Source: Botryllus schlosseri (taxonomy: Eukaryota). From it: a stretch of DNA of 64,000 nucleotides. The position numbers and the translations under genes are program-made. The DNA is taken from the NCBI GenBank assembly GCA_051294905.1, contig CM119372.1:39868001-39932000 (forward strand), given 5' to 3'. Below the pieces are notes generated by a model that saw nothing but the letters and a program-made list of their open reading frames with translations, did no database searches and was not told the origin of the DNA. Numbering within the stretch: the stretch's first letter is position 1; every line of letters begins with the position of its first letter. Of this stretch, positions 8,936-58,164 are shown piece by piece.

Positions 8936-10501
8936 TGTCAATTCCAGAATTCCTACCAAGTGTTGAAGGTTTATCTAGGTTCCTCCTCGCCATCTCATCC
9001 GCGTAACCGGTGTCTTACAAAAAGCCTAGAAGTGGGCCGTGCTACAAGTCGGCAGTTACGGAATAAAAATGAAGAATATCGGCCTGGTATAAAGGACCAT
9101 AGTAGTCGACAAACACTATGAATAACATAAAGCAAATAATAATACGCGTTCGATCGCGGTCCGGTCATTTACTCGTGCACTGTCATTCATTAGCATCGCC
9201 CAGTAGTGTCTAAAATCCGTAGAAAGGATGACTTTGGGGTTACATTCAATCACGAAGTACATGAGATGAAAATGAATTGGTATGTGTCGGTAGATACCGC
9301 GTTCGATTGATGAATTCCGATACCAATAAGTGTTGGAGGTTTACGTAGGCTCCTCCTCGCCACCTCATCCGCGTGGGCGGTGTTGGCCACCCCTGTTCTA
9401 GCGCATATAGTCGTTACTTTAAATAGGGAGGGGACGTTTATATATTGTTCCTAGATCTATTTCCTCTAAAAACTCTTCGCAAACGTAAATCGAGAAATTC
9501 ACCAATGCCGCCAAAATAGCTGTTTTAAACTGCAAACAATTGCCGCGATGCGAGCTACTCAACGCTAAGCCAGAAACCGCAAGAAACAATTACTGATTGA
9601 CTGCGCTATTTCACGTTTGTAATCATCATTATTGTCTGCTTGAAACCTCATATTTCGAGAGTTGTGTATTACTTGTGAGCTTGCCAGACCAGTGTATTTC
9701 GTTAATCAAATGGCGCATTGCGTCCGACTGGATGCAACTCCAAATTCTCAGTGATGTAAATTCTGATTTTTGTTCGATGCTTTCCGTCTGACGGACTGGT
9801 AGCGCAGTTACACTTTCGAATGATCTTACCATTTTAAGATTCCATTTAATAACTAGACTGCATTGTTTAATATTACCGAGTGCAGAGCCGGTATTAAAAC
9901 GTCACACGAATGGTTTAACGCAGCACCGGCGGCATGTAGTGCGATGTGCGATGATGACGTCAGAAGACTTGACCACCTCGTAAAAAAATAAAAGGCAATG
10001 CCTATGAGTAATGTAATTATATAAGCGGATCAAATGTGTTGCTTGAAAGGGAATATTGATTTACTATTCCTGATGCCAACGCGTCTAAAAATCGTTTTAG
10101 AAGCTTGCAAAAGGATTCATGGGACGAATGAAAAAGATTATATTCATGTTATCAGGGAAGCACTGCGGCACTTCCCAAGCCGGAAAGAGGGATGCCGATG
10201 GAAGGTAGGATTTCTTCGTATGCACATTGAAACACTTGATATCATAGGCTATTATAGGACTTCATGGGACGATGATTGCACAGTCACACATCAACGACTG
10301 ACTGACTATATAGTAAGCTATTCTGTGTATATATGCTTATGACATAACATTATAAATCTTCGTTGTGGGGTTGTAATATTAAAATCTTCTGGCGGAATAA
10401 TTCAGATTGGATTATATATTAGCTGTGGCTGCTCCGTAAGTGGTAGTTTATGAAAAGATCGGACCAGGTTACTAGGGTGTTGTATGGTCCATGGTCGTAT
10501 T

Positions 10502-10732
10502 CAGAGGTGGTCAGTAACGAAGTACTTCTACGTTTTGAAGTACTTGAAGTAGATTTTGCCTACTCAAACTACTTTTTAAGTAGTTATGATTTTAGACTAC
10601 TTCTACTTCTACTTGACAGTTTACAGTTTTGTAGGCAAAAATAAGCGTAGAATGCCTACTTACTTACTTACTTGTGAACCAGCACTCCTACTTCTACTTG
10701 AGTAGCGACGGTGACTACTTTGACCACCTCTG
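10502..10732. mobile_element. 231-bp hAT MITE
   Basis: TIR cagaggtggtca...tgaccacctctg; perfect TSD gtcgtatt. Confidence 0.9.
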
Positions 10733-10904
10733 GTCGTATTGCGACTGCGACTTAAGAAACGGATACGTCTAACTAACATGACATCGTCCAAATTTACTGC
10801 CGGAAAATTTAATATGTTTATCACGTGACATGGAAGTACAGTAGTACAGACGCACAAGAGAGTAACTTGTCAAACAGTCGATCATTATGTGCAAAGATCT
10901 ATAA

Positions 10905-11731
10905 CACTGGTCGACAAATTTCGGTAAAATTTTTGCACCAAAAATTTTAATGATTGATTTAGGCTAATTTAAGGCTAATCCGATTCTATGCTCAGAATTT
11001 CTTCATCACGTCAGATTTTTTTCCGCATGAATATTTTCATTTTTATTGAATTAATGAAATTTCGGCTTTCCGTAGTGAAATCACGGTAACCATACAACAA
11101 CAACAGATCAAATATTGTTATTGAAATCGTCTGTCATGAGACCTGAGTTGTTGTAGTACAGAATGGGTGAGTTTTCGGTGAACTCGAATACAGTGATTCT
11201 CTATCTTCGTTCAATTAGAAGGTGTTTCCGGGGGAGGGTGGTCGCATACTTTCAACAGCTAGTCGGAGGTAGCTACATACGAAATCGCAAGATGTATCGA
11301 CGCATATAACGCGAAATGACTATAATTACACCACCCATGGGTAGAATCTTCGAAAAAATATATTCAGTTATCATGATTCAGAAGCTATTTTACGCATTCC
11401 TGATGACACTTCAACTCATGATGGTGGTACAATATTATCCCTGAACTATACTTTCTGCTTTACAAAAACAAAATTGCAAATGTAATTAGTTCATCCAGAA
11501 TGCTGTTCAGGTAGATGTCGAAGTAGTTGTAAAACATCACCACTTCAATAAGTACTGAAAGTAGCCAAAATCTACTTGAGTACCTCGAAAAAGTAGAAAT
11601 ATTCAACCTATATAACATCTCAAAACGTGACGTGATGAAGCGAAAATTATCGCCAGATTCGTATTCAGTGCCCCCAAATTAAGCATAATTGACCCTAAAA
11701 AGTTCTGGCGCAAAAATTGTGTAGATCAGCG
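10905..11731. mobile_element. TIR element with TAA flanks, Chapaev3-like MITE
   Basis: taa|cactggtcgaca...tgtagatcagcg|taa, with about 130 bp of imperfect inverted arms (tttttgcacca/tggcgcaaaaa; ttcatcacgtca/tgacgtgatgaa). CAC ends with a TWA TSD are typical of Chapaev3. Confidence 0.55.
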
Positions 11732-12094
11732 TAATCATTTAACGAGAGGCATCCAAAATAGCCTGTTTTGTGATATAATCCATTTGGCTATTGCACAGTA
11801 TTGATGTTAATGATATCAATCAGCTTTTGATGTGTCATTAGCGCTGTAGCAAATGCTTCACAGTCTGAACATTAGTATAGCGTGGAGAGGGACAAAGGCG
11901 TCATTTGTGTGTTCCCGAGATCAGGTATGACGCTAGTGTTGATAGCCCTGTCGAGCGTTAAAAGTACGTTGCACCGAGTCGACAACACAGGGTCTTTTTA
12001 CATTCTCGCCACGTCGTAATAAAGACAGTCTCGCAGAGCGTTAGAAGTACGTTGAAAAGAGTCGACAGGCAGGGTCTTCTTATATTCCCACCAC

Positions 12095-15000
12095 AGTAGT
12101 TATGTAGATCGGTCGTGATGTGGCAGGGGCTCTTATGGCGGGGTGGCGATTCGCCTGGAAACCCGGGGTGGCGATTCGCCTCTTATCTCTTATGGCGGGG
12201 CCGCGAATCGCCATGTGTTCTTATGGGTGCGGTCGTGATTCGCCTTTTCGGGTATAGGCCGCGGTCGTGATTCGCCGTGAAAACTCGTGGTCGTGACTCG
12301 CCTTTTTTGCTATAGGCGGTGGCGGCGATTCGCCAGTCGCACTTTCAGACATCTCTCGCGTGGTGTTGAATATGTACGAGTCACCAACAATAACCGCACC
12401 AACGGAAACGCGGCTTGCAATAGGATTACGCGTGCGACCCATATTTCGAATGTTGAATTGTAATTGAATGCGAAAATTTATCACCTCGACATCAAAATTC
12501 GAAAACAACAACTTGATGCTTTATGTTCTCACTCTAATTTCATGATAAGTGTAATAAGTGCCGAATAACAGATACACCACCGGCGAGACTTGAATACCAA
12601 CAAATTGTCACTTATTTCTATTCTAGCCGTAATCCTTTGTGAAGTTAACGCTTATTCAAAAATGTGTGAAATATTTGCAAAACCCCGCGATCACTGACAA
12701 GATAATGTCTCGGACATAGTCATCTTTCACGACTTGGTGTCATAGCCATACCGATCGCTCGCGCGGTGAAATTTTAGTAATCAGTTTGACACAGAACTGG
12801 ATTTCACTGGTAAGATTTAATAAATACCGACTAACAGAACCATCAGTGTGGGTAACTTGAATAGCAACAAATTGCCACTTATTACCAACGGGGAAATTCA
12901 CTAAACCACAGTATATTGTGCGATTTTGAAAAACAGATGTTTGGGCTTGCGTTTTGATATGTGCGACCCACTAGCTACATCCGTTTTGCGAACACGGTTT
13001 GTTGTGAGGATTACGCGCGCGCCCTATATTTCGAATGACCCGCGCGCTGAATTGTTACCCGTGCAGCTGTTTCGTGCTACTATCGTATCGATTATTACAC
13101 TAATCCAGTCAGTGCGAAATAGTTTGCTAAATCTAGGAATCAGTCGCATGGTGTTACTTTAGTAATTAGTTTACCACAGAGCCGGCGTAGACGGCGATTC
13201 AAATACCAACAATAACCGTGTTCACATACTAACACTTCAAAAAAGGTGTGAAATATTTGTAAAATCCTACGATCACTGACAAGGGTAACGAATAACAGAA
13301 CCACAACGGCGGCGACTTGAATACCCACAAATTGTCAATTATTGGTCTAACTCGAATCTTTTTAAGAGTATAATCCTTTTGAAACTGAATATTACTTGAC
13401 TTGACCAACTTTCAACTCCGTTTCCGGATCATTCACACATTCCACGCCGCTGTTTTAACACTTATAGAATCAATACCAACTATCTCTAACCCGATAATAT
13501 TCAATCATTTTGGTAATTTGCCAACTTTAAATCCATTCGTCAGATGTACTAAAGGTAAATCCAGATAATCCAAAATGAAATATTTGGACTTTGACATAGT
13601 GTGAATTGAAATAGGATTGACAAACAAGACTACCAACTTTCAACCCACCCATATTTCGAAATTATACGCATATTGATTTGAAACAAGTAATGAAACCTTA
13701 CAACTCTATTCACAACTGAGTTTTCCGTTTATCAAATAGAGTTTCAGTAAATACTATCGCGATATTTTAATGTGTTACTACACACAATAGAATCAATCAA
13801 TGAAATAACACCTGTTGTAAATATTTCTAACTTGACAACCACTTGTGCATACCGCGATCGACTTGTGACGCGATGAGTTAAATCGGAATATTTCAATCTA
13901 TTTGTCGTAACCTTGAACAAACTATCGGGTTATTTTTTGTTGCAATCGAGTGAACGGAAATAGTATTACGTCTCGACATCTCGCCATCTTACCATATTCA
14001 AAGAGTCAACCACGAAAACATTGTCAAGTAAATCCGTTACCCGACCAACTCAAACAGTTAGCCAAGCATACACGAGTCCATACAAACACTAAAACCTAAA
14101 ATCCATAACAAGTTCGGATGTATTCGTATCCCTACGCATCTTTTTTAATCAACTTGAAAAGTCGTTACTATTCTGTAAGATAGAGGGATTACTACGCGGT
14201 ATATTCTGCAAGACAAACTAATTACTACTCGGTATATTTTGTGAGACAAAAGTAATTACTCTTTGGTACAGGGGACTTGAGCTTAACATAATATGTTTGA
14301 GTATACGAGATTTGAAAGTCTGATCGACGTAGTTGCGACTTCATTTCTTACAATCGAACGCTGGTGTTACATTGAAAGTTATCATGCTGTAAACATAAGG
14401 ATTGACACATCGATTTAACATATGTAATAGTTGATCATGACTTGATTATTAAATTATTCGCGTTAATTAGACCCGGCGTTGTGTTGAAAGTTATGACAGC
14501 AACAAACTTTTCAGTACCAATGTTATTAGCATATTAAGCTGTAAAACTATGCGTGTCTGAAATGTTCTTGAATGGAAAATTATTCCACCTTGGTACATAT
14601 CACCCTGCGTATCGCGGATATCAGAAAATATTTTACAAATGTAATTGTCCCCACTAACCAAGACTAAAGATGAAACAACAATTTCCTTTGTTAAACAATA
14701 ACCGGTACAATACTTTATCATCGTAATCAGCAGTGAGAATTGAAACACTTTCGCACATTATCCGGTGTCAAGATATCACACGAGGTGAATTGACATACCG
14801 CCGCTTGCATAATACCTAATCCGTTCACACCATTTCACATACTTTGATCATTACAAAAGTAAATTGGAATATGTTTGCTAGATGCATTCAATTCAGTTAG
14901 AAATGTCTGGTGCACAACAATCGTAATATCAAAAAAGTACTTGCTACACTGTTATTTGCTAAACGTGTTTTGCATTGTTGTTCATTTGTAGTATTGATTG

Positions 15001-18000
15001 TTCTTGAACCCTCAAATAATAATTCCCGACATGAAACCAAGCCACTGAAAGTCGTTACCATCACGAAGAAACAATGTGTACGATGTTTGTCAACTGTATC
15101 CTACCTAGCCACCAGAAAACAATTTTCACTCACTCGAAATGAAACCAATGTGATGGTCTCCATTCGATATTTTGTTTGTGTCAAATACTTTACAATGATC
15201 ACATTTGAGTGGTTGAGGTTTACATCATCAAGCTGTTATTTGTAAATCAAGATTTCGGTAAACTTGTAAATGTATCGTTTAACTAACCAACATTTAGTGA
15301 TTGTTGAACATACGACTTCGAAATACTGCGTTGATCGTAATTTCCATCATCGTGATAATCGAAGTGCATTTCTTTCGAATTCGTAACAACCGGCGTTTCT
15401 ACGACATGATAAATTTTTGACAAGTTATTCTTAGAAGATTGGTTGCATATCGCGAAAAATAATATACCACTCATATTGATACTGTTACTCCATTGATCGA
15501 TATTTTCAAACGAGTAAAATTTATTACTTGAGTTTCTCCGCTTAATGTAAATGCAAACTCAGCCGTCTTTTAACATCACAAAGGCATTGATAAAAAGTAG
15601 GCAATCAAACACAACACTTTGTACGACACTAATTATTGTTCCACACATCTCATTTCATACTAAGTGTATACGAAAGACATTCACGACACATGAAAATATT
15701 CGCTCATGCTACGAACATACGCAATGATTGGTGGTGCTTTCAAACTGTTTGGATATCACAAGAACTTTATTGTCTGAATGGGTGTTCATGTATCTTAATA
15801 ATCAAATAGTTCAACACAGAACTAGTACTAACAGAAACATCAGAGAGTTGTTTACACAAAAGTTTGTATGTGTACAGTATGCGAATACCATGTGTAAGTC
15901 CAGCACAATTGCAGTATCCATCCGAGTTTAGTCAACACAAATTTATTACAACGGAGCCACGTAAACTTTCGTGAAAGAAAAGCATACTCACTTCCAGAGG
16001 GTTATGTCAACACCATAGCAGTAAATCAGCTACTCCAACAACAAAGTACATATGTTTCTAGCCACGATCCTTACATCTTTCACATAGATCAATCTACTTT
16101 GCTAACGAAAAGTGCTGAGTCATCACATGATCGCCCTCACAACAAAACAGCTAGTAGATATTATCATTCAAAATATTCCTAACCCTTTACACACCAGTGA
16201 CAAATCATACAACGAATATGTTTTGTGGGTCGAATTGTTGTTCAGTGTCAAGTCTACCTGTTGAAACGTACATTAAAACAGCGCAATTCAATTAAAACCA
16301 CGAATCTATTTTCATTTCCTCACAAACTGTCACATACAGAAAAATAAATTTTATTCCGCCAAAACATACTTGTAACCAATCACTTTCATTAAACACACAA
16401 CACCATAAAAGTATTTACTTTCTACGACATAGACATTCCGATGTAGTCAAGAAATATTTTTATCAATCAAAATCATCGATTTCTGTTCACGACGTTAGTG
16501 TGTGTATGTCATACCTGTGGACCCCGTATTAAAATGGACACGACACGACTGAATGCAAGGGGGTAGAAGTCTATCGCATCGATTTACATGTGGTCTTCGC
16601 TACGGTTTCAAAAAACGAATCATCTCTTTTGCATTGATCGAGACCGAGCAAGTTAGTTAATGGCCATGATTGTGTTTGTCATATGCGAATGATAGGGTTA
16701 CTGTCAAATCTACATACAACAACCTTCTGGCACTCATAATAGCAATTTCATTCTCTCCCTTCGTAATTGTAGACTCACGACAAGTATATTGTACAACTCG
16801 ACAGCTACGTTTAACAACACCAACGACACTAAACATACGATACCTACCCAAGTAAAATTACCATTTTCACCTGGAGGTCAGTCGTTACCTGAGTAAAAAT
16901 ACCATTATTCTTTGGAGATTTATCGTTTAATCAGAGTAACAAAACATTTTCACTTGGGGGTCTATCGTTTCCAAGAGTAACAAGCCCCCTTTCCTTTGGA
17001 AATCTATTTTTTCCCTGGGTTACAAACCTTTTTCACTTGGAAATATATTTTTTCTCTGGATAACAAACCTTTATCACTTGGAAATATATTTTTTCCCTGG
17101 GTAACAAACCTTTTTCACTTGGAAATATATTTTTTCTCTGGATAACAAACCTTTTTCACTTGGAAATATATTTTTTCTCTGGGTAACAAACCTTTTTCAC
17201 TTGGAAATATATTTTTATCCTACAGCAACAAACCATTTTCACATGGAAAACTACTTTTACCTAGAGTAACTAATCATTTTCTTTTGGAAATATATTTTCT
17301 CCCTGGGTAACAAACCCGTTTCGTTTGGAAAACTATCATTTACCTGAGTACCAATACCGTTTGCACTTGGAAATCTATCTTTTCTCTGGGTAACAATACC
17401 ATTTCCGTTTTGAAAACTGACAACCACACCCGACAATTTGATATTTTTGTATATTGTTACAACGGGCAGTGACAAAATATACACCAACAACGACTCCGAT
17501 ACATTTGTGCAATCGCATATTTACTTGTGTTGGTGCATCCCATCAAAATCATCGGTTACCCACATGCAATGTGCTCTTGTATATCGAAATGTATGTTTGG
17601 AAAATTGGACAATAGGCTTCGATAGGTCTGTGATGTCCGGGTTCGTGATTTGGATTTTCCAGAGTCAAAATGTCTGAATAAAACACCTCCTCGACGATGG
17701 TTGGTATGTGGATAACGGTGTTCGGAAAACGGTTGGATTTATGTCACCCATCGCGATAACAATTCCAGGTCGAGTTTTCCCCCCGCATGTTTACTATATT
17801 GGGTCTTTATTGGTCATGTATGTCTCGACATTCAGTTTGAAATCGGAAACCCTGATAAAGTATGTAACCGGATCCGGATATCAACTCTGAATCGATAAAC
17901 CAATGAACAATATTCAAAGTAAACATGTTACACCCTGTGTTTCCACGAAAAAATACCATCCAGACATACGTCGCGCTTGTTTGCCCACATCAGTATACGC

Positions 18001-18144
18001 GTAAATGGAGGTGTGTGACATTGCATGCAATGTGTTGGTATACAAACATCGATCCACAGACATTATCATAGCCGGTAATTTTGATGCAGATCGAATGTCA
18101 CCCGATAACAATACCAATAAGCCACATTGCAACGACTCTGAGTC
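12095..18144 (+). repeat. Left inverted arm (6,050 bp)
   Basis: Reverse complement of 19040-25089; I noticed only one mismatch by eye (13347 C vs 23837 T). Confidence 0.97.
16844..17414 (-). repeat. 41-42-bp minisatellite (about 14 units), left arm copy
   Basis: Unit approximately CAAACCTTTTTCACTTGGAAATATATTTTTTCTCTGGGTAA; mirror of 19770-20340. Confidence 0.9.
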
Positions 18145-18657
18145 CGCGCTATTACATCGATATTTCCACACCGTTCACTGATTTACTCGATGGTGTTATT
18201 GTGTTGTAACATTACAAGATAGTCACGGCCCTATCTCCGGACAGACCACCCAGACCAATTGGATACATCGGTCAATATCCGTCGTGTTGTCCGAGGTTTT
18301 CTGCTGCAGTGTTTGACCAAGGTGAACTATCGAATCACGGGTGCTCGAAATGATTGCCATCAGTCTTTCAGTCACGATGCATGGATGTCGCTACTCCCAC
18401 ATAACGACTCCAGATAAATATCGTGATTCTGAAAATCTCGGACTGATACTGTGATCCAATAAGGTGTGTTTATGTGGAATGAAGACTGCAATCGTACACC
18501 ACAATAGAACACTACCTCGCGATTTCACACGCAATCATAAACACACATCATCGTAAGGGTCCAGTTCGTCCGGTTTCGAAACGGTCATCGCCACAAGAGA
18601 TCGGTATCATTTTGAAACGACATCGTCACAAGTCTATTGACGTCGATTCTGTTGGTC

Positions 18658-18939
18658 ATGTCAATCCGTTTCACAATCCACCGTTTTTCAACTCCCCGCA
18701 CCATAGTGTTACGACACAGACAAGAAGCGTCGGTGGAAATAATAAAACACGGAAAGCACACTTTGGTCTTATTTGACATGGATTTTACACCCGACGAACC
18801 TTACATTCGAGCGATGCATTGGAATGACGCTTGTATTATTGACGTAGAAGGAACAGAAATGTATCGATTTATTGGTTTCGTACATATCCAACAAAAACCA
18901 GGGTATATGATTGTGCATGGTTCGCATATTCGACTGTGA
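18658..18939 (+). CDS. Possible small orphan protein (about 93 aa) in the palindrome spacer
   Basis: ATG-started open frame MSIRFTIHRFSTPRTIVL...GYMIVHGSHIRL with protein-like composition; no family recognised. Confidence 0.25.
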   Translation: MSIRFTIHRFSTPRTIVLRHRQEASVEIIKHGKHTLVLFDMDFTPDEPYIRAMHWNDACIIDVEGTEMYRFIGFVHIQQKPGYMIVHGSHIRL

Positions 18940-19039
18940 ACGCTCTATTGGTATATGTTGTACAGTTCACTTTCACCGTCGTGCGAATAACCCATGTTAC
19001 GGTTCCATGTTTGTGTGTCTGTATGTCATACTTCAGATT

Positions 19040-22000
19040 GACTCAGAGTCGTTGCAATGTGGCTTATTGGTATTGTTATCGGGTGACATTCGATCTGCAT
19101 CAAAATTACCGGCTATGATAATGTCTGTGGATCGATGTTTGTATACCAACACATTGCATGCAATGTCACACACCTCCATTTACGCGTATACTGATGTGGG
19201 CAAACAAGCGCGACGTATGTCTGGATGGTATTTTTTCGTGGAAACACAGGGTGTAACATGTTTACTTTGAATATTGTTCATTGGTTTATCGATTCAGAGT
19301 TGATATCCGGATCCGGTTACATACTTTATCAGGGTTTCCGATTTCAAACTGAATGTCGAGACATACATGACCAATAAAGACCCAATATAGTAAACATGCG
19401 GGGGGAAAACTCGACCTGGAATTGTTATCGCGATGGGTGACATAAATCCAACCGTTTTCCGAACACCGTTATCCACATACCAACCATCGTCGAGGAGGTG
19501 TTTTATTCAGACATTTTGACTCTGGAAAATCCAAATCACGAACCCGGACATCACAGACCTATCGAAGCCTATTGTCCAATTTTCCAAACATACATTTCGA
19601 TATACAAGAGCACATTGCATGTGGGTAACCGATGATTTTGATGGGATGCACCAACACAAGTAAATATGCGATTGCACAAATGTATCGGAGTCGTTGTTGG
19701 TGTATATTTTGTCACTGCCCGTTGTAACAATATACAAAAATATCAAATTGTCGGGTGTGGTTGTCAGTTTTCAAAACGGAAATGGTATTGTTACCCAGAG
19801 AAAAGATAGATTTCCAAGTGCAAACGGTATTGGTACTCAGGTAAATGATAGTTTTCCAAACGAAACGGGTTTGTTACCCAGGGAGAAAATATATTTCCAA
19901 AAGAAAATGATTAGTTACTCTAGGTAAAAGTAGTTTTCCATGTGAAAATGGTTTGTTGCTGTAGGATAAAAATATATTTCCAAGTGAAAAAGGTTTGTTA
20001 CCCAGAGAAAAAATATATTTCCAAGTGAAAAAGGTTTGTTATCCAGAGAAAAAATATATTTCCAAGTGAAAAAGGTTTGTTACCCAGGGAAAAAATATAT
20101 TTCCAAGTGATAAAGGTTTGTTATCCAGAGAAAAAATATATTTCCAAGTGAAAAAGGTTTGTAACCCAGGGAAAAAATAGATTTCCAAAGGAAAGGGGGC
20201 TTGTTACTCTTGGAAACGATAGACCCCCAAGTGAAAATGTTTTGTTACTCTGATTAAACGATAAATCTCCAAAGAATAATGGTATTTTTACTCAGGTAAC
20301 GACTGACCTCCAGGTGAAAATGGTAATTTTACTTGGGTAGGTATCGTATGTTTAGTGTCGTTGGTGTTGTTAAACGTAGCTGTCGAGTTGTACAATATAC
20401 TTGTCGTGAGTCTACAATTACGAAGGGAGAGAATGAAATTGCTATTATGAGTGCCAGAAGGTTGTTGTATGTAGATTTGACAGTAACCCTATCATTCGCA
20501 TATGACAAACACAATCATGGCCATTAACTAACTTGCTCGGTCTCGATCAATGCAAAAGAGATGATTCGTTTTTTGAAACCGTAGCGAAGACCACATGTAA
20601 ATCGATGCGATAGACTTCTACCCCCTTGCATTCAGTCGTGTCGTGTCCATTTTAATACGGGGTCCACAGGTATGACATACACACACTAACGTCGTGAACA
20701 GAAATCGATGATTTTGATTGATAAAAATATTTCTTGACTACATCGGAATGTCTATGTCGTAGAAAGTAAATACTTTTATGGTGTTGTGTGTTTAATGAAA
20801 GTGATTGGTTACAAGTATGTTTTGGCGGAATAAAATTTATTTTTCTGTATGTGACAGTTTGTGAGGAAATGAAAATAGATTCGTGGTTTTAATTGAATTG
20901 CGCTGTTTTAATGTACGTTTCAACAGGTAGACTTGACACTGAACAACAATTCGACCCACAAAACATATTCGTTGTATGATTTGTCACTGGTGTGTAAAGG
21001 GTTAGGAATATTTTGAATGATAATATCTACTAGCTGTTTTGTTGTGAGGGCGATCATGTGATGACTCAGCACTTTTCGTTAGCAAAGTAGATTGATCTAT
21101 GTGAAAGATGTAAGGATCGTGGCTAGAAACATATGTACTTTGTTGTTGGAGTAGCTGATTTACTGCTATGGTGTTGACATAACCCTCTGGAAGTGAGTAT
21201 GCTTTTCTTTCACGAAAGTTTACGTGGCTCCGTTGTAATAAATTTGTGTTGACTAAACTCGGATGGATACTGCAATTGTGCTGGACTTACACATGGTATT
21301 CGCATACTGTACACATACAAACTTTTGTGTAAACAACTCTCTGATGTTTCTGTTAGTACTAGTTCTGTGTTGAACTATTTGATTATTAAGATACATGAAC
21401 ACCCATTCAGACAATAAAGTTCTTGTGATATCCAAACAGTTTGAAAGCACCACCAATCATTGCGTATGTTCGTAGCATGAGCGAATATTTTCATGTGTCG
21501 TGAATGTCTTTCGTATACACTTAGTATGAAATGAGATGTGTGGAACAATAATTAGTGTCGTACAAAGTGTTGTGTTTGATTGCCTACTTTTTATCAATGC
21601 CTTTGTGATGTTAAAAGACGGCTGAGTTTGCATTTACATTAAGCGGAGAAACTCAAGTAATAAATTTTACTCGTTTGAAAATATCGATCAATGGAGTAAC
21701 AGTATCAATATGAGTGGTATATTATTTTTCGCGATATGCAACCAATCTTCTAAGAATAACTTGTCAAAAATTTATCATGTCGTAGAAACGCCGGTTGTTA
21801 CGAATTCGAAAGAAATGCACTTCGATTATCACGATGATGGAAATTACGATCAACGCAGTATTTCGAAGTCGTATGTTCAACAATCACTAAATGTTGGTTA
21901 GTTAAACGATACATTTACAAGTTTACCGAAATCTTGATTTACAAATAACAGCTTGATGATGTAAACCTCAACCACTCAAATGTGATCATTGTAAAGTATT

Positions 22001-25000
22001 TGACACAAACAAAATATCGAATGGAGACCATCACATTGGTTTCATTTCGAGTGAGTGAAAATTGTTTTCTGGTGGCTAGGTAGGATACAGTTGACAAACA
22101 TCGTACACATTGTTTCTTCGTGATGGTAACGACTTTCAGTGGCTTGGTTTCATGTCGGGAATTATTATTTGAGGGTTCAAGAACAATCAATACTACAAAT
22201 GAACAACAATGCAAAACACGTTTAGCAAATAACAGTGTAGCAAGTACTTTTTTGATATTACGATTGTTGTGCACCAGACATTTCTAACTGAATTGAATGC
22301 ATCTAGCAAACATATTCCAATTTACTTTTGTAATGATCAAAGTATGTGAAATGGTGTGAACGGATTAGGTATTATGCAAGCGGCGGTATGTCAATTCACC
22401 TCGTGTGATATCTTGACACCGGATAATGTGCGAAAGTGTTTCAATTCTCACTGCTGATTACGATGATAAAGTATTGTACCGGTTATTGTTTAACAAAGGA
22501 AATTGTTGTTTCATCTTTAGTCTTGGTTAGTGGGGACAATTACATTTGTAAAATATTTTCTGATATCCGCGATACGCAGGGTGATATGTACCAAGGTGGA
22601 ATAATTTTCCATTCAAGAACATTTCAGACACGCATAGTTTTACAGCTTAATATGCTAATAACATTGGTACTGAAAAGTTTGTTGCTGTCATAACTTTCAA
22701 CACAACGCCGGGTCTAATTAACGCGAATAATTTAATAATCAAGTCATGATCAACTATTACATATGTTAAATCGATGTGTCAATCCTTATGTTTACAGCAT
22801 GATAACTTTCAATGTAACACCAGCGTTCGATTGTAAGAAATGAAGTCGCAACTACGTCGATCAGACTTTCAAATCTCGTATACTCAAACATATTATGTTA
22901 AGCTCAAGTCCCCTGTACCAAAGAGTAATTACTTTTGTCTCACAAAATATACCGAGTAGTAATTAGTTTGTCTTGCAGAATATACCGCGTAGTAATCCCT
23001 CTATCTTACAGAATAGTAACGACTTTTCAAGTTGATTAAAAAAGATGCGTAGGGATACGAATACATCCGAACTTGTTATGGATTTTAGGTTTTAGTGTTT
23101 GTATGGACTCGTGTATGCTTGGCTAACTGTTTGAGTTGGTCGGGTAACGGATTTACTTGACAATGTTTTCGTGGTTGACTCTTTGAATATGGTAAGATGG
23201 CGAGATGTCGAGACGTAATACTATTTCCGTTCACTCGATTGCAACAAAAAATAACCCGATAGTTTGTTCAAGGTTACGACAAATAGATTGAAATATTCCG
23301 ATTTAACTCATCGCGTCACAAGTCGATCGCGGTATGCACAAGTGGTTGTCAAGTTAGAAATATTTACAACAGGTGTTATTTCATTGATTGATTCTATTGT
23401 GTGTAGTAACACATTAAAATATCGCGATAGTATTTACTGAAACTCTATTTGATAAACGGAAAACTCAGTTGTGAATAGAGTTGTAAGGTTTCATTACTTG
23501 TTTCAAATCAATATGCGTATAATTTCGAAATATGGGTGGGTTGAAAGTTGGTAGTCTTGTTTGTCAATCCTATTTCAATTCACACTATGTCAAAGTCCAA
23601 ATATTTCATTTTGGATTATCTGGATTTACCTTTAGTACATCTGACGAATGGATTTAAAGTTGGCAAATTACCAAAATGATTGAATATTATCGGGTTAGAG
23701 ATAGTTGGTATTGATTCTATAAGTGTTAAAACAGCGGCGTGGAATGTGTGAATGATCCGGAAACGGAGTTGAAAGTTGGTCAAGTCAAGTAATATTCAGT
23801 TTCAAAAGGATTATACTCTTAAAAAGATTCGAGTTATACCAATAATTGACAATTTGTGGGTATTCAAGTCGCCGCCGTTGTGGTTCTGTTATTCGTTACC
23901 CTTGTCAGTGATCGTAGGATTTTACAAATATTTCACACCTTTTTTGAAGTGTTAGTATGTGAACACGGTTATTGTTGGTATTTGAATCGCCGTCTACGCC
24001 GGCTCTGTGGTAAACTAATTACTAAAGTAACACCATGCGACTGATTCCTAGATTTAGCAAACTATTTCGCACTGACTGGATTAGTGTAATAATCGATACG
24101 ATAGTAGCACGAAACAGCTGCACGGGTAACAATTCAGCGCGCGGGTCATTCGAAATATAGGGCGCGCGCGTAATCCTCACAACAAACCGTGTTCGCAAAA
24201 CGGATGTAGCTAGTGGGTCGCACATATCAAAACGCAAGCCCAAACATCTGTTTTTCAAAATCGCACAATATACTGTGGTTTAGTGAATTTCCCCGTTGGT
24301 AATAAGTGGCAATTTGTTGCTATTCAAGTTACCCACACTGATGGTTCTGTTAGTCGGTATTTATTAAATCTTACCAGTGAAATCCAGTTCTGTGTCAAAC
24401 TGATTACTAAAATTTCACCGCGCGAGCGATCGGTATGGCTATGACACCAAGTCGTGAAAGATGACTATGTCCGAGACATTATCTTGTCAGTGATCGCGGG
24501 GTTTTGCAAATATTTCACACATTTTTGAATAAGCGTTAACTTCACAAAGGATTACGGCTAGAATAGAAATAAGTGACAATTTGTTGGTATTCAAGTCTCG
24601 CCGGTGGTGTATCTGTTATTCGGCACTTATTACACTTATCATGAAATTAGAGTGAGAACATAAAGCATCAAGTTGTTGTTTTCGAATTTTGATGTCGAGG
24701 TGATAAATTTTCGCATTCAATTACAATTCAACATTCGAAATATGGGTCGCACGCGTAATCCTATTGCAAGCCGCGTTTCCGTTGGTGCGGTTATTGTTGG
24801 TGACTCGTACATATTCAACACCACGCGAGAGATGTCTGAAAGTGCGACTGGCGAATCGCCGCCACCGCCTATAGCAAAAAAGGCGAGTCACGACCACGAG
24901 TTTTCACGGCGAATCACGACCGCGGCCTATACCCGAAAAGGCGAATCACGACCGCACCCATAAGAACACATGGCGATTCGCGGCCCCGCCATAAGAGATA

Positions 25001-25089
25001 AGAGGCGAATCGCCACCCCGGGTTTCCAGGCGAATCGCCACCCCGCCATAAGAGCCCCTGCCACATCACGACCGATCTACATAACTACT
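19040..25089 (-). repeat. Right inverted arm (6,050 bp)
   Basis: Reverse complement of 12095-18144. Confidence 0.97.
19770..20340 (+). repeat. 41-42-bp minisatellite (about 14 units), right arm copy
   Basis: CAAGTG core at 19981, 20022, 20063, 20104 and 20145 (period 41); more diverged 41-42-bp units at both edges. Confidence 0.9.
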
Positions 25090-25849
25090 CACCACGCCCT
25101 AAAAAAACAAATTTTCAACATTTCTGGTCTGTACCAGTGTTTGCCGGGGGTAGATAATAATGTCGACAACTAAAAACAAAGACATCGAGGACCGTTTCAT
25201 GTCAATGGATGCTCAACCTTGAGCAGAACTTCCTAGATCCGACGGAAATATTATCCGGATTGTATCAAGATTCCGTTTTATCGAATAAGATTAGATCGAG
25301 TTCCCCATGACCGTGATTCATACATGCTTAATTCCTTTTCAAAGTTATGTTAGAACACAAAACAGAACTATAGAATTAGGTTATGTTTTATATCGCATGC
25401 CCACTGCGACATCAGGTAGTAGCTGTCGGTTAGTCTGCGATAAGGATACGGCAAGTCCGTGGTCAACGGATATCCGCTTACAGTTTATACTTAACTGGCA
25501 CTTCCGCAGTAGCTGCTGACACGAACGTCCTGTGTTCTGTTTAGTTCTTGACTGTAGTTCAATAGACACAAACAATGCCTTTTCCAGATATATTGTACGG
25601 GTTGATAGTAATTTGGATAGTTTAAGCAGTAAGTACAGCGTACATGAGTCTCGTATAAATCTGAGTCAATCTTTGATATGCACTGGGTTATAACTATGCG
25701 ATAAGTCACGTGATATAGCATTATACCATAACAGATATAGGAGAGAGAAGGGGCCAGAGCTCCACACCACCCAGTCCATCCCCGTTCTCTTTGCCCCATC
25801 AATCCAAACTGCCTTATGTTTCACGAGTTCACAGTGTTTTCTGATGAAT

Positions 25850-57557: not shown

Positions 57558-58164
57558 TAGGGTTGTTCAAAAAAAACTTTTTTTCCAAATCTCGCTCGCC
57601 TAGTGACTAAATCGTCAGGTTGTCCAAAAAAACGATGCACACCAAATTTGACTCAATTCCAACCAGTAACGGCCGTGCAATCTTGAATTGAAATTTTTAA
57701 ATTATTAATAAAAATAAAAAAATTAAAATTCTCAAATTTTTCTGTCAACCCCATGAAATTGTTGAGCTGTCTTCAAAGACGATGCAAAACAAATTTGAGT
57801 CAATTCCGACCAGTAGAAGCGAAGCTATTGGAGTTTTTCGTTGATAATCCGCGGATCAAGGATAATCCGAGAATTATCAACGAAAAACTCGAATAACTCC
57901 ACTTCTACAAGTCGGAATTGACTCGAATTTGTTTTGCATCGTCTTTGAAGACAGCTCAACAATTTCATGGGGTTGACAGAGAAATTTGAGAATTTTAATT
58001 TTTTTATTTTTATTAATAATTTAAAAATTTCAATTCAAGATTGCACGGCCGTTACTGGTTGGAATTGAGTCAAATTTGGTGTGCATCGTTTTTTTGGACA
58101 ACCTGACGATTTAGTCACTAGGCGAGTGAGATTTGGAAAAAAAAGTTTTTTTTGAACAACCCTA
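57558..58164. mobile_element. Near-perfect fold-back hAT MITE (607 bp)
   Basis: Inverted arms of about 290 bp around a loop of about 24 bp; TIR tagggttgttcaaaa; perfect TSD ctgtacag. Confidence 0.92.

Follow-up and report, generated by a model that had tools for sequence, protein, structure and literature searches.

How does a 13-kb segment that is almost entirely its own mirror image, that ends like a Polinton/Maverick and in which no Polinton gene is recognised come to lie in the genome of Botryllus schlosseri, and what keeps its two halves alike? The segment is a 12,995-bp insertion at positions 12095–25089 of a 64,000-nt stretch of contig CM119372.1 (hereafter, the window). The explanation that we consider probable is that it is a helper-dependent (non-autonomous) Polinton/Maverick derivative, best called a satellite, the arms of which are most likely kept alike by snap-back re-templating or repair.

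Polintons/Mavericks are widely regarded as viruses. To our knowledge, Polinton replication and virions have never been observed, and non-autonomous relatives have scarcely been described. In a full-text literature search, no Polinton derivative that is palindromic or devoid of genes came up, and one paper remarks on the apparent absence of non-autonomous derivatives in a lizard (PMC3014272).

Architecture of the element and its relation to an autonomous Polinton

The original prediction had described a left arm at 12095–18144 (forward strand) and a right arm at 19040–25089 (reverse strand) around an 895-bp spacer. The direct comparison of the two arms re-derived this architecture: 6,049 of the 6,050 positions are complementary, and the sole mismatch is found at 13347 (partner 23837). 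The terminal inverted repeats (TIRs) represent 93.1% of the 12,995 bp, as initially proposed (~93%), and the remainder is a unique centre at 18145–19039 (forward strand). The termini AGTAGT...ACTACT were seen again to abut, on both sides, the 6-bp target-site duplication (TSD) CACCAC (12089–12094 and 25090–25095); AG...CT-type TIR ends and a 6-bp TSD are hallmarks of Polintons/Mavericks. The flanks, which had been described as unique, are so within the assembly only over the nearest ~360 nt (left) and ~310 nt (right); farther out, other repeat families begin.

On the forward strand, the left arm opens with a terminal 20-mer starting with (AGT)2 (12095–12114), which is common to the autonomous Polintons of this genome. 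It is followed by a subterminal array of ~30-nt units, with ~11 matches to a GA(A/T)TCGCC-type motif (12145–12335, forward), and by a block (12447–12694, forward) that is 98–99% identical across many other copies, while the adjoining terminal 342 nt are 73–96% identical among copies. A conserved core is present at 15740–15940 (forward) and holds a 27-mer (15844–15870) invariant in 18 arms; it is probably not coding, as a 2-bp indel within the core speaks against a reading frame. The RNA fold signal of the core is near zero (z score) on both strands, and the Rfam scan of 12000–19100 gave a sub-threshold miRNA match only. The invariant 27-mer was not found in viral-contig or metagenome-contig collections, an absence that says little. 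The only tandem repeats detected in the 6-kb arm by TRF are a 409-nt array of 9.9 units of 41 bp (16996–17404, forward) and a 73-nt array.

The same genome contains a 17,263-bp element (C1:19598838–19616100), with a 688-bp TIR and a 6-bp TSD, which is a complete Polinton/Maverick and which we refer to as the helper. It encodes a pPolB of 1,209 aa (PF03175, 1e-7), an integrase (rve+chromo, 3e-16), an ATPase (PF00910, 22.3 bits; cut-off, 21.5 bits) and a double-jelly-roll (DJR) capsid protein, the AF2 model of which (pLDDT 91) matched the MCPs of iridovirus, PBCV-1, Sputnik and mavirus (Foldseek, 5e-16). An autonomous element with the same ends had been predicted to encode pPolB, integrase, ATPase, protease or capsid: neither protease nor penton was identified in the helper, and the other functions are all there. 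Among the 38 pPolB loci scored from 435 candidates, 32 are stop-free and four are 100% identical; the number of intact copies, at least 32, is therefore a lower bound.

The claim that the ends of the window element are of Polinton type was borne out, since its terminal 20-mer is 19/20 identical to that of the helper and the TSD is 6 bp long in both. Beyond the 20-mer, homology with the sampled helper is limited to element positions 1–106 (82% identical), 243–358 and 921–1032, for a total of ~330 aligned nt in the terminal 1 kb; no alignment extends into the arm interior or the centre. The subterminal array of the helper has the same layout but another core (GGTGGTGAGCGGCT), and no autonomous copy with the exact subterminal repeat type of the window element was found. 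Coherently with the predicted absence of Polinton genes, none of the 50 ORFs of the window element matched Pfam (no pPolB, rve integrase, ATPase, capsid or transposase), and tblastn of the helper ORFs against it gave no match.

Two origins of the arms were rejected on these grounds. They are not decayed helper genes, since the relation does not reach beyond the terminal ~1 kb and no helper ORF matches; nor are they a copy-back or inverted-dimer defective genome of the sampled helper, as the arms are not a duplicated helper stretch and just ~330 nt align. Thus, the proposal of a non-autonomous Polinton derivative stood as regards the ends, the TSDs and the large family described below, while a recent copy-back of helper genes did not, because the relation is confined to the terminal ~1 kb.

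The comparison with the helper also bears on whether the element could belong to another superfamily, as a cut-and-paste transposon of foldback type that resembles Polintons at its ends only. Foldback (FB) transposons consist mostly of inverted repeat, and long TIRs, subterminal repeats and little coding capacity, all found here, are typical of them. However, FB arms are assembled from tandem repeats, with a 9-bp TSD in Drosophila, whereas the arms of the window element are complex sequence built without tandem repetition, and its TSD is 6 bp. Moreover, the terminal 20-mer is common to elements with pPolB and integrase and a TSD of equal length, ~100 terminal nt and two more blocks align with the helper TIR, and no transposase was found in the window element by Pfam or by tblastn of helper ORFs. 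We consider such an origin highly improbable.

The body of the satellite is, then, a 6-kb non-coding sequence and its mirror image, with the ~0.9-kb centre between them. On sequence grounds, it appears to have retained the (AGT)2 terminus, ~100 nt of related sequence and the subterminal repeat array, and to have lost all replication, integration and capsid genes. From the common ends, the equal TSD length and the at least 32 intact pPolB copies, we infer that it would be mobilised in trans by a helper.

The palindromic family and the ORF in its centre

A degenerate 20-nt terminal pattern has two matches in the window, against 0.05 expected, and 859 forward plus 870 reverse matches genome-wide (495 Mb), where the reversed control gave 0 + 0. 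We estimate a copy number of ~900–1,200, corresponding to ~2–3% of the genome; the palindromic element is more numerous than the autonomous Polinton copies. Further copies with different TSDs had been anticipated, and indeed all ten fetched palindromic copies have 6-bp duplications, with nine different sequences; three palindromic copies begin with the exact 20-mer of the helper. The centres are homologous over their whole length, and the mirrored arm/centre junction stands at the same place in 38 of the 39 other scored copies, so the palindrome architecture is ancestral to the family.

An assembly fold-back had been named in the original prediction as what would overturn it. Chimeric long reads can yield perfect palindromes, and the data at this locus are short unitigs; however, an assembly or library artefact is countered by the hundreds of loci, spread over many contigs, that have this same architecture, with a TSD of its own, diverged sequence and conserved junctions in every copy, and the probability of such an artefact is negligible. 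At the window locus, one short unitig (from a DNA run) tracks the left flank precisely as far as 12094, beyond which it no longer resembles the element; this break, seen in a single short contig, may reflect an empty allele. No haplotig with the empty site is present in the assembly.

The longest ORF in the window element is 119 aa (ATG/GTG/TTG starts), in line with the original statement that none exceeds ~120 aa. A small conserved ORF at 18658–18939 (forward strand) was overlooked there, however; it encodes 93 aa before its stop, or 91 aa in most copies, and an all-beta fold is predicted for the product. The frame is open in 10 of the 14 centres inspected. Of 1,192 candidate loci, 150 were scored, and every one of these shows a full-length identity of 90% or more. 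The dN/dS ratio is 0.30–0.44 at a dS of 0.77–0.96 (15 pairs across two centre types), and the differences per codon position are 29.5, 15.5 and 36.9. Overall, these ORFs stay open and under purifying selection at 5–25% divergence between copies, a pattern from which the centre appears to encode a small conserved protein, the one gene of the element.

A profile search on 1.84 billion representatives returned, as relatives of this ORF, its own family (P0233) and one spurious WD-repeat match only, and the ESM Atlas gave nothing at ≥0.9. Compared with the HSP20/alpha-crystallin/CS beta-sandwich, the model reached a best Z of 5.4 (VIA-align) and a best Foldseek E of 0.02; one of the five AF2 models was confident (pLDDT 77). 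In the ~6% that was read of one RNA run, 165 reads matched the element, 164 of them partially, and none lay over the centre ORF, which says nothing on expression. This orphan ORF may encode a factor that manipulates the helper.

Selection on an ORF carried by the element also matters for the possibility that the palindrome is not a parasite but a hairpin locus serving the host, e.g., by supplying long dsRNA or small RNAs directed at Polintons. Once transcribed, a perfect 6-kb inverted repeat with helper termini would give dsRNA, and strongly conserved non-coding blocks exist within the arms; against this, the family comprises ~1,000 dispersed copies with TSDs, and the selected ORF travels with them. 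We regard a host function of this kind as very unlikely.

Concerted evolution of the arms

Within a copy, the arms are 99.50–99.98% identical (1–27 mismatches), and different copies are 64–97% identical to each other. With 1–27 differing bases within a copy against 3–36% between copies, the arms evolve in concert. In seven of nine copies, arm divergence is 0.02–0.07%.

In the satellite model, the protein-primed polymerase of the helper would initiate at the (AGT)2 ends of the satellite, and a displaced or unfinished single strand would, most likely, snap back on itself, so that at each replication round the arms would be re-templated or mismatch-repaired against each other. The rve integrase of the helper would then insert the satellite copy, generating the 6-bp duplication. 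Gene conversion between the arms while in the chromosome has to be taken seriously as an alternative, and the two processes may operate together. If conversion accounted for the arm identity, the element and its helper dependence would be unchanged, and the insertions could be old.

Three observations count against conversion. The arms of the C12:8.9M copy are 99.76% identical, and two sister copies are ~99.7% identical to it: arm divergence approximates divergence between copies, as in LTR-like dating, which favours re-templating at replication over slow decay in place. The centre ORFs, intact and selected despite 5–25% divergence between copies, favour it as well, and would be unexpected in long-dead copies. 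Finally, the copies with secondary insertions have a lower arm identity (98.3–99.5%). The break at 12094 in the unitig, if it marks an empty allele, would likewise favour re-templating over slow decay in place. The copy C1:15.7M contains a nested LTR element, which gives no age bound because its LTRs are 100% identical.

Other observations point towards conversion. The nearest scored relative of the window copy is 95% identical to it, despite the single arm mismatch, and the C3:19.6M copy resembles it in this, its nearest relative being 96% identical. If sources were chromosomal and homogenisation in place did not occur, one should find a source copy almost identical to each; arm divergence of 0.02–0.07% in seven of nine copies, beside nearest relatives 4–5% away in these two, thus speaks for conversion. 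In C11:5.6M and C12:8.9M the mismatches occur in patches, and the 27 of C11:5.6M spare one 3,070-nt stretch that looks like a conversion tract. Mosaic copies are also found: the ORF segment of the window copy is identical to that of C2:4.0M at 278 of 279 positions and the flanks at 87–92%, so exchange between copies occurs, which conversion in the chromosome or template switching could explain. Taken together, we consider conversion a credible but less probable source of the arm identity, and re-templating or repair at replication the likeliest one.

Implications and comparison with known systems

If the satellite model is right, the genome holds a natural and very successful Polinton parasite, reduced to its cis-acting needs. 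The comparison between satellite and helper would place candidate origin and integrase sites in the first ~100 nt and in the repeat array, and the mirrored body, with its concerted evolution, could bring the intermediate of replication, a snapped-back single strand or a panhandle, within direct reach of study. Element lengths fall within a narrow range, a hint that packaging may constrain them.

It seems doubtful to us that these elements go as far as being true polintovirus satellites, with replication by the helper polymerase, packaging in the helper capsid, a length floor, a helper-exploiting protein and a circulating pool. Were this the case, a lower packaging limit would hold their length near three quarters of that of the helper (75.3% for the window element, 12,995 of 17,263 bp), which they would reach by carrying a ~6-kb stuffer twice, in mirror image, much as undersized helper-dependent adenovirus genomes double spontaneously. 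The orphan 91-aa protein would exploit or interfere with the helper, and the germline would be re-entered from a diverse pool, circulating horizontally or population-wide, from which perfect arms beside a 5% distance to the nearest genomic relative would follow.

Among known systems, the arms of primate Y-chromosome palindromes are kept alike by arm-to-arm gene conversion. These palindromes share with the window element an arm identity of ~99.9–99.98% and a unique spacer, but they are single-copy genomic structures, without the mobility, TSDs or viral termini of the element.

Autonomous Polintons/Mavericks have in common with the window element the 6-bp TSD, the AG...CT termini, the presence of TIRs and ~100 nt of related terminal sequence. 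Unlike them, it has no pPolB, integrase, ATPase or capsid and carries one unrelated small ORF, and its TIRs are 6 kb long (93% of the element), against ~0.6 kb in autonomous Polintons; an Anolis copy measures 17,487 bp with a 6-bp TSD and a 584-bp TIR (PMC3014272). Butterflies, according to a recent preprint, have Polinton derivatives lacking polB and Polintons with ~2-kb gene-bearing TIRs (10.1101/2025.02.07.637071). As described there, they are similarly mobile without a polymerase of their own, or have TIRs far above the usual length, but they retain capsid and other genes, their ~2-kb TIRs are coding and they are not near-complete palindromes. Transpovirons and Tlr1 (PMC5499653) are gene-poor linear TIR elements descended from Polinton-like viruses and dependent, as the satellite would be, on another virus or element; they differ in having a helicase or other genes, short TIRs and protist or giant-virus hosts, and no sequence relation of the window element to them was found.

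The mirror-image doubling has a parallel in helper-dependent adenovirus vectors: rearrangement occurs in those smaller than ~27 kb, and one of 15 kb is packaged in the form of direct and inverted dimers (PMC4189039). Both systems combine protein-primed linear dsDNA, a DJR capsid and gene-less genomes that keep their ends, and the adenovirus limit, 27 kb of ~36 kb, also corresponds to ~75%. The adenovirus genomes are, however, non-integrating laboratory products, whereas the palindromic family is an old lineage that is heritable and integrates; its members have a unique centre and lack termini in their interior.

The palindromic insertion and its family

Repeat detection placed the two arms of the insertion at 12095-18144 (+) and 19040-25089 (−), each of 6,050 nt, with a centre of 895 nt between them (18145-19039). 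Direct reverse-complement comparison paired 6,049 of the 6,050 positions, the sole mismatch being a C at 13347 (partner position 23837). The element starts with AGTAGT, finishes with ACTACT, is abutted by CACCAC on the left and right, and is 12,995 bp long, with a terminal inverted repeat (TIR) share of 93.1%. The arms, spacer, ends, and duplication of the original prediction were reproduced, and its ORF ceiling of about 120 aa held (the largest conventional ORF has 119 aa). The flanks, previously described as unique, are so in the assembly only next to the element (~360 nt to its left, ~310 nt to its right); beyond these lie other repeat families.

Two dispersed families sit beside the insertion site, at 11230-11740 and 25405-25770 (921 and 1,164 first-look candidates, 84-98% identity). 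Positions 10314-10941 are a very high-copy repeat, where unitig depths add up to tens of thousands and where the sole appreciable RNA-seq read matches within the stretch compared with reads are located. At 57569-58152 lies a hairpin (288-nt arms, 95% complementary, 8-nt loop) that probably represents a small element of the foldback or MITE-like kind.

The palindrome is not an artefact, being a member of a large family. In the eukaryotic assembly that holds the window (495.5 Mb, 219 contigs), a degenerate 20-nt terminal pattern matched 859 times forward and 870 times in reverse (reversed control, 0), the invariant arm 27-mer (15844-15870) had 721 + 708 matches (control, 0), and the centre ORF gave 1,192 first-look candidates. 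We estimate, rather than count, ~900-1,200 copies, roughly 2-3% of the genome. Nine further copies, retrieved using the first 600 nt of the element as query, all have long inverted arms, as does the window copy (3.4-6.5 kb, 98.9-100% identity by BLAST). Copies with different 6-bp target site duplications (TSDs), which the original prediction had proposed to look for, exist: a 6-bp duplication flanks 10/10 copies, with only nine distinct sequences because GTCGTA was found twice. The copies examined were picked by similarity or size, non-randomly, and identities from the genome-wide search are rounded values.

Among the first 100 contig 1 terminal matches listed, 37 adjacent +/− pairs were present, spanning 12-14.1 kb (16 pairs), 14.1-16 kb (8), 16-20 kb (6), or larger (5) and smaller (2) distances. 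A 13.4-kb pair, chosen because it lacks the arm 27-mer, has a palindromic centre too (arms of at least 1,076 nt, 100% identity, 926-nt spacer).

The TSDs of the 10 palindromic copies and the putative helper Polinton described below are 61% G+C (40/66 bases), versus ~40% in the genome region; together with the repeated GTCGTA, this may reflect a weak target preference. Three nested pairs of Polinton-type termini (spans of 41.8, 28.7, and 14.7 kb) occupy C1:16768420-16810257. The right arm of the palindromic copy C1:15703969-15721605 contains a 4,027-bp LTR element (element coordinates 9588-13614) with TG...CA ends, 329-bp LTRs 100% identical, and the 4-bp TSD ATGT.

A small gene in the centre

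From copy to copy, the centres show homology over their whole length (86-93% identity), and they split into two types, between which alignment is limited to ~250 nt. This common stretch is an ORF at 18658-18939, of 93 aa in the window copy and 91 aa in most copies, which the original prediction overlooked in describing the gene content. Among 14 centres, the ORF is open in 10, frameshifted in one, and absent from three, including one deleted and one substituted by other sequence. Between the two types there are zero indels over 91 codons, 15 cross-type pairs gave a dN/dS of 0.30-0.44 (dS 0.77-0.96), and the differences by codon position were 29.5, 15.5, and 36.9. Genome-wide, 150 loci were scored; in every one, identity reaches 90% or more along the whole ORF, and 109 are without a stop. 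The one checked among the other 41, C1:15710851, has the family's usual stop at codon 92. Judged by openness, dN/dS, codon-position pattern, and genome-wide conservation, the centre ORF is a gene.

Among 1.84 billion representatives searched by profile, only the centre ORF family itself was recovered. The AF2 model (one of five confident, pLDDT 77) is all-beta with eight predicted strands, and this one confident model weakly resembles alpha-crystallin/CS sandwiches (Z ≤5.4, E ≥0.02). The copy C24:276544-291170 has a 627-nt centre without the small ORF and with a stretch that looks tRNA- or SINE-derived (TCGAACC-type box).

Likeness of the arms within copies

Of 39 other copies scored with window 17400-19039 as query, 38 have a mirrored match that terminates at query position 744-747; therefore, the arm/centre junction is common to copies. 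Left arms are 64-97.4% identical across copies (MAFFT alignment), and arms within one copy are 99.50-99.98% identical, with 1, 2, 2, 3, 3, 3, 4, 15, and 27 mismatches in nine copies. One ancient duplication without homogenisation predicts arms at least as divergent as copies, and the arms are far closer. Thus, some process keeps the arms alike; on these alignments, the palindrome is old and its arms evolve in concert.

As to the process, we lean towards self-templating: during protein-primed strand-displacement replication, a single strand would snap back and the arms would be templated on each other, so that arm identity would be made at each replication or insertion and then decay. Coherently with identity made at replication, the arms of C12:8.9M are 99.76% identical and two sister copies stand at ~99.7% (from bit scores), copies with later insertions show lower arm identity (98.3-99.5%), and centre ORFs are intact and selected though copies diverge by 5-25%. 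Moreover, in sequencing run X1 a 394-nt unitig aligns to the left flank (four differences) as far as 12094 exactly; its next 81 letters, recorded only as unlike the element, behave as the empty allele would in this one unitig.

Chromosomal arm-to-arm conversion, to which we assign a clearly smaller chance, would also keep arms alike. It is favoured by the window copy and C3:19.6M, whose nearest scored relatives are 95% and 96% identical, yet whose arms differ by one and four bases, and by C11:5.6M, whose 27 arm mismatches spare 3,070 nt. Copies are also mosaic: the centre ORFs of the window copy and C2:4.0M (L042, C2:4004400-4006800) are identical at 278/279 positions, amid a surrounding centre at 92.4% and arms at 87-97%, which shows exchange between copies; likewise, many copies are 98-99% identical to the window over 12447-12694, beside stretches at 73-96%. 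Self-templating and conversion may both act.

A putative helper Polinton and comparison with known systems

An autonomous element with the same ends, anticipated by the original prediction, was found among eight larger or odd-sized contig 1 elements, and one copy was read whole. This putative helper (C1:19598838-19616100) spans 17,263 bp and has a TIR of 688 bp (99.56% identity) and the TSD TTCGAT; its first 20 nt are one base off those of the window element and match three palindromic copies exactly. It encodes a polymerase (1,209 aa, DNA_pol_B_2, 1e-7), an integrase (356 aa, rve 3e-16 and chromodomain 1e-8), a P-loop ATPase (203 aa), and a capsid candidate (423 aa, pLDDT 91.4, 43 homologues in the alignment), whose predicted fold resembles the double-jelly-roll (DJR) major capsid proteins of iridovirus, PBCV-1, Sputnik, and mavirus (Foldseek E 5e-16 to 1e-11, TM 0.6-0.69). 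With this gene set, the helper is a complete Polinton/Maverick, its capsid protein being assigned from the model.

A first look for its polymerase across the genome gave 435 candidates, of which 38 were scored: every one is 91-100% identical, 32 are stop-free, and four are identical as protein. The best match outside the genome, in marine invertebrates, is at 39% identity, which marks the host as an animal. A family search of the genome with PF03175 was a false negative, as hmmscan and protein search show dozens of intact pPolB genes.

The window element aligns to the helper only at positions 1-106 (82%), 243-358 (82%), and 921-1032 (88%). The 25 helper ORFs of at least 100 aa gave no tblastn match to it or to most other copies, except for ~640 nt of subterminal sequence in C3:3.0M and a match of 27 aa in C1:14.5M. 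One arm plus the centre contains 58 stop-to-stop ORFs of at least 50 aa; with seven that lie within or near the 41-bp array (16996-17404) and one located largely in the flank set aside, the other 50 had no Pfam match, so the predicted lack of recognisable Polinton genes stands. Conversely, the helper has no homologue of the centre ORF. Both elements carry subterminal arrays of ~30-nt units, with unlike cores (GGTGGCGATTCGCC-like in the window element versus GGTGGTGAGCGGCT in the helper).

Length is 13.0-13.9 kb in seven of nine compared copies despite many indels, the exceptions having either gained 1.95 kb by a later insertion or lost central sequence; the window copy has 75.3% of the helper's length. 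Helper-dependent adenovirus genomes shorter than ~27 kb are reported to gain length by rearranging, and a 15-kb vector to enter capsids in dimeric form, both direct and inverted (PMC4189039). Adenovirus likewise uses protein priming and has a DJR capsid, and by this analogy, on which the packaged-satellite reading of palindrome length is based, length could be tied to packaging.

Full-text searches of the literature, including one on long TIRs and with Repbase entries outside their scope, turned up no Polinton satellite that is palindromic or gene-less. The closest published cases concern butterfly elements with ~2-kb gene-bearing TIRs and polB-less derivatives (bioRxiv 10.1101/2025.02.07.637071), and Tlr1 and transpovirons (PMC5499653). 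By gene content, the window element departs from an autonomous Polinton, whereas its ends and TSD are those expected of a helper-dependent Polinton derivative.
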